Below the pieces are notes generated by a model. That model saw nothing but the letters and a program-made list of their open reading frames with translations, made no database searches and was not told where the DNA came from. The position numbers were made by a program, and so were the translations under genes. A stretch of 63,662 nt of DNA, filler included, from Octopus bimaculoides (lineage: Eukaryota), in assembly GCF_001194135.2 (NCBI RefSeq). It is 7 parts of 5 records of this genome, joined end to end, with 100 filler letters (N's around TTAATTAATTAA, not from the genome) between each part and the next. Parts side by side here need not be neighbours in the genome. Positions count along the whole stretch, not along the records: positions 8,257 to 16,887 come from NC_069003.1; positions 16,988 to 25,858 come from NC_068997.1; positions 25,959 to 50,014 come from NC_068982.1; 4 more parts are not named here. The stretch is one strand, 5' to 3'. Shown here in pieces: positions 9,317 to 44,785 of this stretch (positions are counted from its first letter, which is position 1; each line of letters opens with the position of its first letter).

Positions 9317-9415
9317 ATTCTTTTACTTCCGACATATGTTTCGAAGACAACATTGGCATTATTCCAAAGGAATAAATGGTATAAAATAATGTAATCTTCT
9401 CCTCAGGGAAAGAAT
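9317..9415 (-). ncRNA. Type I hammerhead ribozyme, intact core (HHR-A)
   Basis: Minus strand reads ATTCT-TTCC CTGAGGA GAAGA...TCTTC GAAA C ATAT GTC GGAA-GTAAA-AGAAT. GUC site; predicted cleavage between 9331 and 9330. Confidence 0.85.
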
Positions 9416-10027
9416 GAGAATCAAACTCAACAATAAGACATTTTAACAAATGTGATGACTGTGTAAATGATGAACAGAACGCTATTAAGTATTTTAAAAA
9501 ACCGTTAGTAGATATGACGTCAAAGGTAGCGCATATGAAGAGAAGGGGTAAAGAAATCAATAAGGAGAGAACTAATAAAGGAGAAATATAGAGTGATATG
9601 TGAGTTAAATGTTCAAAGGCTTGGAAATAGATATCTCTATTGGAAGTAGAGTGAAAGAAGAACTAAATGCTCAAACTATATAGATTGGTATAAATCCCTT
9701 ATATGAGCTAAAGGTGTGTTTCTGCCATCGTAAGAACGCTCTATACTCGTGTTTACAAGTGGATTCTTAGAAAAGAAAATGTGGAACAGTTCAGAATTAC
9801 AAATATTACAGAATTTTTTTACCTTTGTCGTAAGGGAAAGAAATTGATAGGATGAACCAATCTAAATTAAATTTCTTATTATCTATAAGATGCCAAATCA
9901 ATTTACTAAGTCTCTATAAACTTACTAGGAGCTACTATTTCGAACTGCTTAAAAAAGAAATTCAAAAAACTATACGATCACTGGTAAGAATACACTCAGG
10001 GAAGCTAACCTTGAGGCTAAAGAAATT

Positions 10028-10849
10028 ATGGAAATGTATGGATTACAGATGAAGACAGAACCATTAGATCCTAAGCAACCACGGTTTATTTTAAAAGACC
10101 ACAAACAAAACTTTTATAATAACCCCTCATTACGGCTTATCTGTCCTTCCAGCTCAGACATCGGTTTACTTAGTAAAAACATCCTAGATAAATATATCCC
10201 TACATTAGTCAATAAATTAAAACTTAGTTTATGGTCTAATTCTTTTCAAGTCGTTGATTGGTTTAATTCTATTACTAATAAGGTTATCACTAATTTCATC
10301 CAGTTCGATATTTCTAGCTTTTATTCCTCCATAAACCCAATATTACTTAATAAGGCACTTTGGCTTGCTCACAACAAAGCTGGTCTCACCAGAGAAGAGA
10401 TTAAAGTTGTGTTGGCAGCCAGAAAATCTATCATAAAATTTGACGAGCTGTGGGTCCGTAAGGATACACCCGACGGATTTGATGTCACGATGGGAAGTTC
10501 CGATTCAGCACAGATAGCGGATTTAGTCGGCGTATATATACTTTATGAAATGGCTGACCAGTTTCCATTCCCAGACATCAGTGGAGGTCTATATCGCGAT
10601 GATTGTTTACTTTACCTCCAAAATGTTTCCAATCAAAAAATACAAAGGGTTAAGAATAGGTTAGTTAGGTTTTTTTTCCGTAGAATGGGCTTAGGGATCG
10701 TTTTTGATGACGAAGTAGCTAAAGCCAACTTCTTAGATATTACACTTAATTTGCACAATAACTTGTACTTCACATACCACAAACCATCACCAATCTCAAG
10801 TATATTAGCCTATCCAGTAATCACGCTAGGGCAATTACTAACAATTTAG
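10028..10849 (+). pseudogene. Penelope-like reverse transcriptase ORF fragment (273 aa)
   Basis: LKDHK, FIQFDISSFYSSI (motif A), FDVTMGSSDSAQIADLVG (motif B), GLYRDD (motif C), ANFLDITL; frameshifts and stops on both sides. Confidence 0.9.
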
Positions 10850-11715
10850 TTTAAAATATTTCAGTTAGATTGTCTAAACTATCCGCCAATGTTGACATTT
10901 TTAACGACGAGGCTGAATTGTATAACTCTGTCTTAGTTAAAGTAGTGTATAAAGAAAAAGTTATTCCGTTCAATCTCACTCTGCATTTATTAATCGAGAC
11001 ATGAAATCTAGTTGTAATAAGAAGAGCGATTTTAATTTTTATATAGACACCAACACTAAACAGAGTAAGGTTTTTTTTACAGTATAAGGGAGATAACCGT
11101 TATTTAAGCCCATTTTTTCATTCTAATAGAAATACGATTTTCTTTAGAGATAGTTCCACTTACAATTTGATAGGTGCTAGCAAAACTATTTGGTTTGTTA
11201 TTTCGTATGGAAAGCAAATTAAATTTAATCTTCCTTTACAGTTCTGTGAAGTGGTTAGTAAGAACTTTACAAAAATTCTAGATATTATTCGATTATAAAT
11301 TCTCATAGACTTAGAGTAGCATTTTCCAACACAAAAAATCTTTCGCAAATTATATCTTCTCATAATATCAAGCTGTTAAATAAAAATTCATTTACTGATA
11401 GTTCCAACATTAATTTAGTTAATACCAACCTTTCCTCTAATAATAATAACAACAAAGTTTTGGTCTCTGAACTCAACCCCAACAGAATTAGATTTATGTC
11501 TAATAATTCTAAGATTACGAATTCTATATATCAGTGTAAAATTACTTCCAGTACCGAAGTCTATTTTTATATTGGTGCTTCTTCTTCACAGTTATCTAAA
11601 AAAAATTCCAATCATTATTCTACATTTAGGGATAATAGTAAATTGATTTGGCATCTCAAAGATAATAATAAGAAATTTAATTTAGATTGGTTCATCCTGT
11701 CAATTTCTTTCCCTT

Positions 11716-11881
11716 ACGACGGACTTCTTTTAGTTTCCATCTACCAAATCTATTCACAAGGCTTTGGTCGACCCGAACCCATAGTAGAAGACATTTGCCC
11801 AAGGTACCATGCAATGGGACTGAAACAGAAACCATGTGGCTGGAAAACAAACTTCTACACCACACAGTTACACCTGCGCCT
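11716..11881 (-). mobile_element. SINE family A head inserted in the GIY-YIG domain
   Basis: Reverse complement starts AGGCGCAGGTGTAACTGTGTGGTG; homologous to the other family A heads. Confidence 0.85.
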
Positions 11882-12244
11882 AGAATAAAGTGAGATCTCA
11901 CCAGACACAGGGAAGTCATTAACTTACAATGTATAAAGTAAATTTACGACTTTGGTTTTTATTAATTCTTTATCATTTCACTATTAAAAGCTTATACAAA
12001 CCATTTTTAGAATAAAATTTATAAATTATCATCCACGTTAAATTCGTTTAGTCGTGATACCACACCTGCGATTTAGGTGAGCATTAGGCATAACAACTAC
12101 TCAAAAGAGGGGAGCTACAAAATTAAAGATTAAGAAACACTGCATTAGATCAACTAATACTTATACAGCAATATCACACCCTTTATCGACTAGTATAACA
12201 TTTCCCCACAGAAGTAATATAAGTATCGATCAGCAATATCCTTT

Positions 12245-12435
12245 CTACTATAGGCACAAAGCCTGAAATTTGGGGGAAGGGGGATAGTAGGTGCCATCGA
12301 CCCCAGTGCTCAACTAGTAGTTATTTTATCGACCTCGAACGGATAAAAAGCAAAGCTGACTTGGGTGGCATTTGAACTCATAACGTAAAGACGGGAATTT
12401 TGCGCGGCGTGCTAACGGTTCCGCCAGCTCACTGC
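12245..12435 (-). mobile_element. SINE family B
   Basis: GGCACAAAGCCTGAAATTTGGGGG...ATCGACCCCAGT...GAACTCA...GCTAACGGTTCCGCCAGCTC. Confidence 0.75.
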
Positions 12436-13260
12436 CTCAAATGCAATCACCAATATGAACATTTTCTTTGAAAGTAAAATATGTGTTATCTCTGGCTGAC
12501 ACCTCAATGCACTAAAACATGTGGCATTTTACTCCACGGAAAAAGGAAACAATTTCCTCCATTAAATTTGAACAAAAGCAGTGAACAGTTGACGGTTAAT
12601 TATCGTATTCATTCAGCCATTTTATCTCTGCACTATAAATATGTGTCGATTTAATCGTTGTCAGCTCTTCGCTTACAAGTATTGGTTTGTGTCTATGTCA
12701 GAAATTATTAATATAATCAACGACTTTTACACCTTCGAAAAGAGTTCGCAACAAAATTTATTAACGCAGTGAAAATTTAATAAATACGCAGAGAATGAAT
12801 AAAAGGAAAATTAATTTTTAAAATTCGTTATTTTGTTTTTTAACTTCTTTTTATCAGATTTTGCTTCGCATGTTCCATTTTTGTTGTCGTCCATTATTGT
12901 TTTCTTTCTTTCTCACATTTTTATTATAGTTTTATTTTTATTTTTCATTCTATTTATTTTTTTTATTTTTTTATTTTGTTTCTCTCCTTATCTTAAAAGG
13001 CTCCGTGGTGCCAGGCAGCGTTTGAATGGTGATACGAATATTCTTTGAAAATAAAAAGAAGGTAATCGAAACGTTATACTTTCTTTCGATGGAGTCGTTA
13101 TTGTTGGATTTAATCTTTATCAAAAACATCTTTCTCTGTGTGTCTATGTGTATACATTTATATATATGTGTGCGTGCGAGTGCACGCGTGTATGTGTATG
13201 TATGTATGTGTGTGTGTGTATGCGTTCATGCGCGCGTATGTATGCATGTGTCAAATAGCA

Positions 13261-43364: not shown

Positions 43365-43526
43365 AAAAATATTGATATTTCTAAGTATCTCTAAAGGAGA
43401 CAACGGCAGCGGTACTGGGTATTAATAGTTATCGCCAAGCTAACACGGCAGTCCAGGAAAATAGGACAAATGCTGCGGTCCTATTATCCTGGACTGCCAT
43501 GTTAGCTTGGCGATAACTATTAATAC
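43365..43526. mobile_element. Fold-back insertion with 49-bp hairpin, flanked by an 11-bp target-site duplication
   Basis: Arms 43419-43467 and 43478-43526 match at 47/49; TTGTCTATAAT at 43354-43364 and 43527-43537; homologous to 57243-57345. Confidence 0.85.
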
Positions 43527-44094
43527 TTGTCTATAATCTAGATATATCATTGAGATATTTCACTGACTGTAATATAGGTTAGTATTAAATTCTACACACA
43601 TATACACACATGCTCGCACACAGACATTCATTCATACATATACACATTATTATAGTAGTTGGTATCAATCTTGATAACTAACTGTATTTACGCAGTGGGT
43701 CTAGCCGTACATTAATGTAGAGAAGCGTTTTAAAAATATAGGATTATGTTAACTAACTCTCTCTTGCCCTTTCCAAGGAGATGCTCCTAGATAAAACAAA
43801 TATAAACTGTAAAACTGAAAACTGCTCTTCCTATTCGTTAATAGTATCTAACTGAATCACACAACTGCTATTGCTGACAGCACAGCTACATCGTTCACAA
43901 TAGAAGGAACTGAGAAAGGCATCTCACTTTGGGTGGCAACTTCCTGTTTTGGTAGTGGCGGGCGATGCGCTGTCATCAACCAATAGGGTGGAACAATCAT
44001 TAGTTCTATGATCGTTATAAAGATAGGTTGTTCATAGAATGATGCAGCAAGACGCAAGCTGCTACAAGCAATTGAATATTATTACTGCAAACAA

Positions 44095-44305
44095 AGCGGT
44101 GAGCTGGCAGAATCATTAGCACGCCGGGCAAAATGTTTAGCGACATTTCGTCTGTCTCTATGTTGTTTTGAGCTCAAATTCTGCTGGAGTCGACTTTGCA
44201 TTTCGGGGTCGATGAAACAAATATCAGTAAAGCACTGGGATCGATGTAGTCGACTTAACCTCTTCCCCGAAATTGCTAGCCTTGTGCCAAAATTTGAAAC
44301 CAGTA
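44095..44305 (+). mobile_element. SINE family B
   Basis: GCGGTGAGCTGGCAGAATCATTAGCACGCCGGGC...GCTCAAATTCTGC. Confidence 0.8.
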
Positions 44306-44386
44306 TTACTGCAAATATCAGTCTAACTTAAGCAAAGTTGAATACCCGGAATTAAATCGACGTTTTAACCTTTTCATAAGGGATTA

Positions 44387-44446
<60 letters not shown>

Positions 44447-44702
44447 GTGTGTATGTGTGTGTACGTGTGTTTGTTGTGTGTGCGCGCGTGTGCGTGTTTG
44501 TGCGTGCATATGTGTGTATGTGTGTAATATTTGTATCATATTTTCATATATTTCTATTACGTTAAGTTGTTTGTATCAACTGAATAAAAAAGTCTGATCT
44601 ATCCGTAAAAGGAAGCAGTCTGCTGGTAATCATTTAACCACATTAGGGTTCAATGTATATATGCATGTATGTATTCATGTATTGATACTTAAAGCTTTCT
44701 AA

Positions 44703-44785
44703 AACGTAACGCGTGTCTCGGTGAAGCGATTGTTATTATTATGCAAGGCAATCAGCCAAATACAGTCGTTTACCTCATCAGCGTT
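44703..44785 (-). ncRNA. Degenerate hammerhead (HHR-D) in repeat 44607-44830
   Basis: AACG CTGATGA GGTAAACGAC...ATCGCTTCACC GAGA C ACGC GTTA CGTT. GAAA has become GAGA, with an extra T at the cleavage site. Confidence 0.6.

Follow-up and report, generated by a model that had tools for sequence, protein, structure and literature searches.

Results

Hammerhead motifs in the Octopus bimaculoides window

The sequence analyzed here is a composite stretch of the Octopus bimaculoides genome (63,662 nts including filler, assembly GCF_001194135.2; hereafter the window, along which all positions are counted), which is about 64% A+T and rich in microsatellites and gaps. It contains a group of type I hammerhead ribozyme motifs, one family of which lies in the 3' end of a Penelope-like element (PLE). 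The core in type I order (CUGAnGA, GAAA, UH) is complete at three loci and broken at four or five, and an 8-nt perfect palindrome lies across stem III at all three complete-core loci. The three helices around the core are clear at 9326-9411; stem I is marginal at 38960-39026 (its 3 bp include one G-U pair), and stem II is mismatched at 39513-39591 (C-A at pair 2). These motifs are real, and most of the copies in the window are decayed.

The initial annotation of this DNA had described at least seven folds in unrelated flanking sequence, three of them with every core nucleotide intact. The three are indeed complete, with the full CUGAnGA...GAAA...UH at 9326-9411, 38960-39026, and 39513-39591. 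The remaining four are all broken and group as two pairs of relatives, which reduces the seven folds to five families (A-E). The flanks are likewise not all unrelated: the 33.6k and 34.0k copies are a tandem duplicate (relatedness z 19.7), the 42.2k and 44.7k copies belong to one family (z 26.4), and the 9.4k motif has a sibling at 47.39k (z 7.7). All five reported palindrome positions were matched within 1 nt, namely ACATATGT at 9332-9339 and again at 42196-42203, ACCTAGGT at 39015-39022, ACGATCGT at 39519-39526, and the 10-nt ATATGCATAT at 34017-34026. Of the two palindromes assigned to degenerate copies, the one at 42196-42203 is present. At 34017 a stem III palindrome is doubtful, because AAA replaces GAA in this copy and stem I lacks a closing pair in the 10-nt register (A opposite C). 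The other family D copy, at 33.6k, has lost the first core half, CUGAUGA. Coordinates of all features are given in Table 1.

Table 1. Hammerhead motifs and associated mobile-element features in the window
Feature	Position	Strand	Description
Family A intact type I hammerhead	9326-9411	-	Stem I 5 bp; core CUGAGGA 9406-9400; 57-nt stem II domain
Family A hammerhead, 3' part	GAA 9342-9340; ACAUAUGU 9339-9332	-	Predicted cut after C at 9331
Inverted, 5'-truncated PLE 3' end (pseudo-LTR)	9278-9913	-	Endonuclease C-terminal end, 3' untranslated region (UTR), hammerhead; element end ~9278
PLE open reading frame (ORF), assigned to the Hydra clade; 5'-truncated, frameshifted	9953-11717	+	Reverse transcriptase (RT) 9953-10789, thumb and linker, GIY-YIG endonuclease to 11717
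Second family A insertion	47340-47611		Inverted half-hammerhead CUGAUGA 47393-47387 (-), 3' half lost; RT fragment 47489-47611 (+)
Family B insertion	38554-39184	+	467-nt non-coding unit 38698-39164 plus 20-nt terminal repeat; ends at (TA)n
Family B inverted partial copy	38554-38703		Precedes the unit; crosses the unit's end-to-start junction
Family B hammerhead, intact core	38960-39026	+	3-bp stem I; 42-nt stem II domain
Family B hammerhead, 3' part	ACCUAGGU 39015-39022	+	Predicted cut after A 39023
Family C hammerhead, intact core	39513-39591	-	5-bp stem I; 50-nt stem II domain
Family C hammerhead, 3' part	ACGAUCGU 39526-39519	-	Predicted cut after C 39518
Family D, two degenerate hammerheads 386 nts apart	33596-34034	+	Tandem duplicate; short 16-nt stem II
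Family E degenerate hammerhead	42188-42270	-	Core and 5' stem II disrupted; ACAUAUGU retained
Family E degenerate hammerhead	44700-44790	-	CUGAUGA retained, with GAG in place of GAA; palindrome broken; stem II domain of 55 nts

Descriptor searches and chance expectation

A strict descriptor, in which stems I and II each have at least 4 contiguous bp, was passed only by 9326-9411; among shuffled sequences, 9 of 300 gave any match and 1 of 300 a palindromic one. A palindrome search allowing one mismatch under this descriptor revealed no further locus in the window. With a relaxed descriptor (stem I of at least 3 bp and three of the first four stem II pairs, thresholds that were chosen after the loci were known), exactly the three complete-core loci were recovered. 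Block-wise dinucleotide shuffles produced one locus with a palindrome of at least 8 nts in 2 of 1000 cases and two such loci in none, compared with three in the window; the shuffle comparison proposed in the initial annotation thus favors genuine motifs. Most of the signal is carried by the palindrome, because 24 of the 1000 shuffles reach at least three loci when it is ignored (0.55 loci per shuffle).

In the Rfam search that the initial annotation had also proposed, no hammerhead was matched in the window at gathering level or, by E-value, among the best 150 of 257 matches, nearly all of which are microRNA models on TA/CA microsatellites, and two local 251-nt scans at E≤10 returned only chance small nucleolar RNA and microRNA matches. 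A model built from relatives of the PLE described below (Hydra clade) matched 9323-9414 (E 0.0012). Its matches to 39510-39594 and 33983-34035 were weak, each with E about 0.9, and it did not recover the 38.96k motif. A sequence-only alignment of six window motifs failed to align their cores.

Could AT-rich DNA have yielded such motifs by chance? The window holds 28 CTGAnGA matches, the relaxed descriptor finds loci in shuffled sequence at the rate given above, Rfam recognizes none of the motifs, and the 34k and 39.5k folds are weak. On the other side stand the three palindromic loci where 1000 shuffles never gave two, the position of one motif in a PLE 3' end as in relatives of that element, and very deep coverage of its family in two organisms. 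We therefore consider a chance origin of the set extremely improbable, and for family A it is already refuted.

Two further candidates were rejected: CTGAAGA at 42059/42841, which belongs to another repeat pair, and CTGATGA at 47225, for which no matching stems could be seen by eye. At 47190-47260 (+), a hairpin with GAAAC inside is followed by CTGATGA, an order reversed relative to a type I hammerhead, and the stems are unconvincing by eye. A tRNA scan of the window found none.

A Penelope-like element carries the family A hammerhead

Alignment with homologs identifies the ORFs at 9953-10849 and 11262-11888 as an RT and a GIY-YIG endonuclease; this identification is based on relatives and on published Hydra sequences. 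A total of 34 longer homologs were found (best E 2e-71, 48% identity), the best named one being from Argonauta hians, and the homolog profile (E 3e-90) spans 9896-11717 across frameshifts. Pfam gave nothing significant in the window PLE ORFs or in four full-length relatives, and a PDB search gave two weak RT matches (E 0.27-0.28). From about 11716, the 3' end of this main copy is replaced by a high-copy interspersed repeat.

The missing 3' end is represented by a second copy on the opposite strand. Positions 9827-9908 are a 93% inverted copy of 11636-11720 (masked self-BLAST), and the profile match carries on over its positions 628-687 along minus-strand 9913-9739, which is weak alone; an hhalign comparison gave E 0.0008. 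This copy encodes the endonuclease C-terminus, with the CxxC motif as CNIC and, in another frame, the CxH motif as CKH; the hammerhead core follows in sense orientation ~330 nts downstream of the last profile-matched endonuclease codon. Because the inverted copy runs through the endonuclease C-terminus to the core, the family A ribozyme at 9.3k lies in the sense 3' UTR of an inverted, 5'-truncated copy that is head to head with the main copy. The 47.3-47.6k locus has the same head-to-head layout with different breakpoints. At its 9278 end, family A abuts AT-rich DNA without (TA)n, and the flanks of other copies are mixed.

Family A combines the features of an endonuclease-containing (EN+) PLE, i.e., a PLE-type RT with a C-terminal GIY-YIG domain and a pseudo-long terminal repeat (pseudo-LTR) with a sense hammerhead. 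The endonuclease of the window copy carries marks of the Hydra clade (SIY...YIG without the CCHH cysteine pair, and CNIC and CKH in two frames). Among the homologs, CxCX5C is found in 28 of 34, and P0001-P0003, which make up three rows of the four-row starred clade, have both RWR/RWK and DKT; the nearest relatives have RWR/RWK, DKT, CxCX5C, CxxC, and CxH and no CCHH. The RWK, DKT, and CxCX5C motifs are gone from the window copy, which is 5'-truncated and has a decayed linker. In an RT tree, the window RT groups with P0001-P0003 and P0019 at 100% Shimodaira-Hasegawa-like approximate likelihood ratio support, within a quick, midpoint-rooted reconstruction of the 34 homologs only, without named clade references. 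Nematis/Neptune and Naiad were rejected as the clade of family A (no CCHH; endonuclease C-terminal). Identity with Hydra-1_Obim, a published element of this octopus (Craig et al. 2021, PMC8557442, File S2), was also rejected, since the listed RT sequence and hammerhead differ from those of family A.

A hammerhead-like relic lies at 15783-15863 (+), with a 24-nt Hydra-type stem II (E 0.032 with the Hydra-relative model) and decayed stems III and I. A PLE RT fragment (E 1e-5) is found ~780 nts away on the opposite strand, at 14885-15016 (-). Together they may be what is left of a third head-to-head PLE, one with the ordinary short stem.

Read and contig data over family A

DNA contigs from two organisms covered all 30 bins of the family A stretch. 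In one contig set (X1), the two hammerhead bins reached depths of 114,741 and 73,741 compared with 377-12,422 for the ORF bins; depth here is not copy number, and the excess is what many truncated 3' ends would give. In two RNA runs, each sampled to about 6%, 355 and 304 reads were placed. Loose ends with mixed flanks were seen before 9277-9278 in all four runs (agreement 0.57-0.63; 46 and 33 contigs; 17 and 16 reads), which puts the element end ~50 nts beyond the predicted cut. Other family A copies are present in RNA. Across stem III, a group of 13 loose-end reads (agreement 0.78) has ACAUGUGU, an imperfect palindrome that self-pairs with two G-U pairs.

The stem III palindrome and proposed dimer formation

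Within one molecule, the 8-nt segment allows only the two outer stem III pairs, and the hairpin is predicted at +2.0 to +2.4 kcal/mol. When two copies pair, the 8-bp self-duplexes at the three intact loci reach -7.0, -11.4, and -10.0 kcal/mol. Three unrelated families, each with its own sequence, all have Watson-Crick pairs at the two inner stem III positions; given local composition, such inner pairing would arise by chance with a probability of about 5e-4 (0.072 x 0.081 x 0.081).

As an outside comparison, we examined 77 metagenomic loci of related PLEs with a hammerhead search that allowed 110 nts for stem II; 32 of them had a match (39 matches in total). Of the 62 loci with an entered ORF end, 19 have a sense hammerhead 95-271 nts downstream of the ORF; missed hammerheads are not absences here, as many contigs end soon after the ORF. 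In all 19 of these downstream hammerheads, stem III is self-complementary save for at most two central bases. For covariation, 22 of the 39 matches were chosen by hand, leaving out near-duplicates, antisense matches, 4-6-nt segments, and one match with a poor core. All 264 cells of these 22 rows are paired; the search demanded stems I and II but left the inner part of stem III free. There, the innermost pair is present in 22 of 22 rows with seven double-sided changes, counts that are inflated by shared ancestry. This pair closes a loop of 0-2 nts and is thus impossible in a monomer. The initial annotation had inferred past selection for dimer-dependent cleavage, and the inner pairs kept in three families, together with the covariation reproduced in Hydra-clade relatives, support selection for a stem III formed between two molecules.

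If the motifs instead cleaved as monomers, the long stem II and extended stem I would have to provide tertiary contacts that offset the 2-bp stem III, and the palindrome would be merely inherited. Invertebrate retrozyme hammerheads with a 2-bp stem III are reported to cleave well as monomers (Cervera and De la Pena 2020, PMC7229834), and the 9.3k motif combines a proximal stem II of 11 bp with a stem I that is predicted to extend past a 4x4 internal loop. However, the palindrome has been retained as three sequences in three families, and the relatives covary at the pair that a monomer cannot form; we judge monomer cleavage improbable. Our preferred explanation, with a probability of about 0.82, is that these are type I hammerheads, one family of which belongs to a Hydra-clade PLE 3' end while the others are likely derived from retrozyme-like relatives of it, either truncated or non-autonomous, and that they would self-cleave only as dimers through the stem III palindrome.

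In metagenomic locus L041, 2675-2956 (-), two identical type I hammerheads lie 281 nts apart in antisense just beyond a Hydra PLE, forming a retrozyme-like tandem whose helper is likely that PLE. Hammerheads with palindromes of 4-6 nts (ACGT, ACATGT, and ACGCGT) occur upstream of Hydra ORFs at L007:136, L028:2755, and L058:319, so that the segment length spans 4-10 nts in the metagenomic loci.

Units and ancestry of families B-E

In family B, the unit is preceded by an inverted partial copy of itself, and because this copy spans the unit junction, it derives from a multimeric or circular template. The two family D copies form a 386-nt tandem, and ~250 nts are common to the 44.7k copy of family E and 42095-42339. 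Families B (467 nts) and D (386 nts) fit the design of animal non-LTR retrozymes, which are described as short AT-rich non-coding units of ~150-450 nts that carry a single type I hammerhead and occur singly or in tandem (PMC7229834). Unlike retrozymes, the window families show neither long tandem arrays nor any pair of units in which both ribozymes are intact. The main texts of that paper and of the bioRxiv preprint cited below make no mention of octopus.

Families B-E might be independent retrozyme or satellite families that share only the general hammerhead design and do not descend from the family A PLE. Flank similarity between families is no better than shuffle noise except for 38k/44k (z 5.3, without a coherent alignment), a profile search found no PLE protein remnant near any of the four, and the 386- and 467-nt units are close in size to mussel retrozymes (350-390 nts, PMC7229834). 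Nevertheless, these families have the 8-nt palindrome in common with the PLE motif, as B, C, and E do the long stem II, and family B combines an inverted 5' copy of the PLE type with a target at (TA)n. Furthermore, animal retrozymes are described as derived from PLE pseudo-LTRs (Li, Clavereau and Pollet 2026, bioRxiv 10.64898/2026.07.22.740005). On balance we think independent origins unlikely, with a better claim than monomer cleavage; if true, they would alter the ancestry and not the mechanism.

Several observations on the surroundings were also made. Families B and C approach the (TA)n tract at 39185-39269 from opposite sides, which suggests that the same microsatellite was targeted repeatedly. 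A diverged AT-rich direct repeat of ~35 nts (33541-33576 and 34241-34278, 703 nts apart) brackets the family D tandem and is possibly a long target-site duplication. Directly 5' of the 42.2k family E hammerhead, 42330-42720 (-) contains a long interspersed nuclear element RT fragment, VKQGDTISPKLF, presumably RTE-like.

An extended stem II domain

The stem II domains of families A, B, C, and E (Table 1) have roughly double the length found in any of the listed Hydra relatives, in line with the extended stem II that the initial annotation had proposed as a possible novelty; in the metagenomic relatives stem II measures 10-25 nts in 19 of 19 downstream hammerheads and in 38 of all 39 matches. 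In family B, the domain consists of 5 bp, an internal loop, and an 8-bp hairpin. Compared with shuffles, the domains of A (z -3.3) and B (z -5.0) fold well, and those of the decayed C (z -0.02) and E (~0) do not.

Loop 2 has 3-10 nts in the 26 published Hydra rows (PMC8557442). Two spike-moss PLE-X elements in the same source have loop 2 inserts of ~30-35 nts; therefore, length alone has precedent. No octopod hammerhead with a long stem II was found in the literature, in a search that lay outside Repbase and Dfam, and Lunse et al. 2017 and the Terminon paper may show such variants. Most likely, the core tolerates the long stem II as an extension specific to this lineage, and it looks like a modest new variant, the sole new-looking feature of these hammerheads.

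Other repeats in the window

A high-copy interspersed repeat of ~150 nts lies beside CA/TA microsatellites at 4834-4985, 8291-8454, 8568-8742, 9097-9182, 11715-11882, 14336-14491, 25045-25233, and 30746-30936, among others; the copy at 11715 truncates the PLE at 11716. A second repeat family occurs at 12236-12453, 13494-13899, 18085-18228, 29064-29255, 44093-44306, 45347-45488, and 54548-54701. We take both to be likely short interspersed nuclear elements. A 222-nt near-perfect palindrome (89%) with a short loop at 13263-13484 resembles a miniature inverted-repeat transposable element. A second near-perfect palindrome lies at 43419-43526, with a partial copy at 57242-57350. Decayed mariner/Tc1-like transposase pieces are found at 39700-40300 and 61249-62156 (weak DDE_3 and HTH_Tnp_Tc3_2 matches below cut-off).

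Discussion

Comparison with known hammerheads

The suggestion of the initial annotation that these families may be undescribed is mostly unsupported, as the palindromic stem III, the dimer reading, and a Hydra PLE hammerhead from Octopus have all been published. Among animal type I hammerheads, a covarying palindromic stem III for dimer cleavage is already established. According to Cervera and De la Pena (2014, PMC4209133), metazoan type I hammerheads usually have a helix III of 1-2 bp with a palindromic loop of 2-4 nts; they also report many covarying families per genome, solo copies from truncated PLEs, and cleavage that depends on dimers. Palindromic stem III was tabulated across many families, with the dimer reading, by Perreault et al. 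(2011, PMC3088659, Fig. S8), and a review (PMC6765202) states the dimer model, citing Lunse et al. 2017. For Octopus bimaculoides itself, File S2 of PMC8557442 gives Hydra-1_Obim a near-palindromic hammerhead.

The window families agree with these accounts in many respects. Like Hydra-clade PLEs (PMC8557442), they have a sense type I hammerhead near the 3' end, a short RT with a C-terminal GIY-YIG and no CCHH, a self-complementary stem III, an inverted 5'-truncated copy (an arrangement that Craig et al. call typical), and, in families B and C, apparent (TA)n targets. Like metazoan PLE hammerheads (PMC4209133, PMC3088659), they show a short helix III with a palindromic cap and several covarying families per genome, with dimer cleavage as the proposed reading; mostly solo truncated copies, opposite-strand pairs a few hundred bases apart, and a longer-than-usual helix II are further likenesses (PMC4209133). 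Differences exist as well. The published Hydra rows have a 9-10-nt stem III segment with 1-3 central bases and a loop 2 of 3-10 nts (PMC8557442), whereas an 8-nt perfect palindrome and a stem II domain of 42-57 nts are found here. The larger helix II of metazoan PLE hammerheads has 7-8 bp in the published sets (PMC4209133, PMC3088659), compared with the two-tier domain of the window families, and the three intact window copies have no bulged base after the core.

Weighing the dimer model

A number of points speak against our preferred explanation. The link to PLEs, which the initial annotation had raised as an analogy, holds for family A; for families B-E we only infer it, because they have no attached PLE protein. 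Even for family A, the assignment to the Hydra clade rests on relatives, because neither the CxCX5C linker nor the N-terminus survives in the window copy. When two family B units are folded in tandem in silico, pairing of the palindrome between copies has a probability of 0.93-1.0, but the proximal stem II pairs have a probability of 0.0, and the full active fold is consequently not the predicted ground state in this model. Unconstrained folds of the intact loci omit stem III and, at 38k and 39k, also parts of the hammerhead. No RNA read among the 355 and 304 was at least 99% alike to the window copy; 79-86% of the reads extend into unlike sequence, and both directions are present. Read-end pile-up at 9330/9331 was absent from the two shallow RNA samples, which are uninformative on cleavage, and start or end pile-ups were seen only at 11483 and 9620. 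Lastly, published PLE hammerheads cleave weakly even as dimers (PMC4209133).

Under the dimer model, a read-through or tandem transcript would place two ribozymes together, and the 8-nt palindromes of the two copies could form one 8-bp helix instead of two unstable 2-bp hairpins. A cut 3' of the H17 base would in turn free an RNA of unit length, in linear or circularized form. The PLE RT and GIY-YIG endonuclease might copy this RNA into new AT-rich or (TA)n sites, usually with 5' truncation, and such insertions would scatter hammerhead-bearing 3' ends across the genome. The copies in the window are likely dead relics without host function.

A bolder scenario is that an octopod branch of Hydra PLEs uses the two-tier stem II as a working module, for example, as a handle by which the RT-endonuclease recognizes its own RNA and non-autonomous circles of 390-470 nts, with the family-specific 8-nt palindromes serving as a like-with-like pairing code for dimerizing and cutting. 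We regard it as a long shot.

Implications

With respect to palindromic stem III, the main claim is already established, and the window adds examples rather than a principle. The insertion at 38554-39184 is a DNA record of a multimeric or circular template and fits the proposed PLE/retrozyme cycle. The three natural palindrome variants provide ready material for testing the family-specificity of hammerhead dimers. The long stem II conceals the motifs from Rfam and probably also from short-loop descriptors, so that counts of hammerheads in genomes of this kind are likely too low; the 64 kb examined here hold five families.

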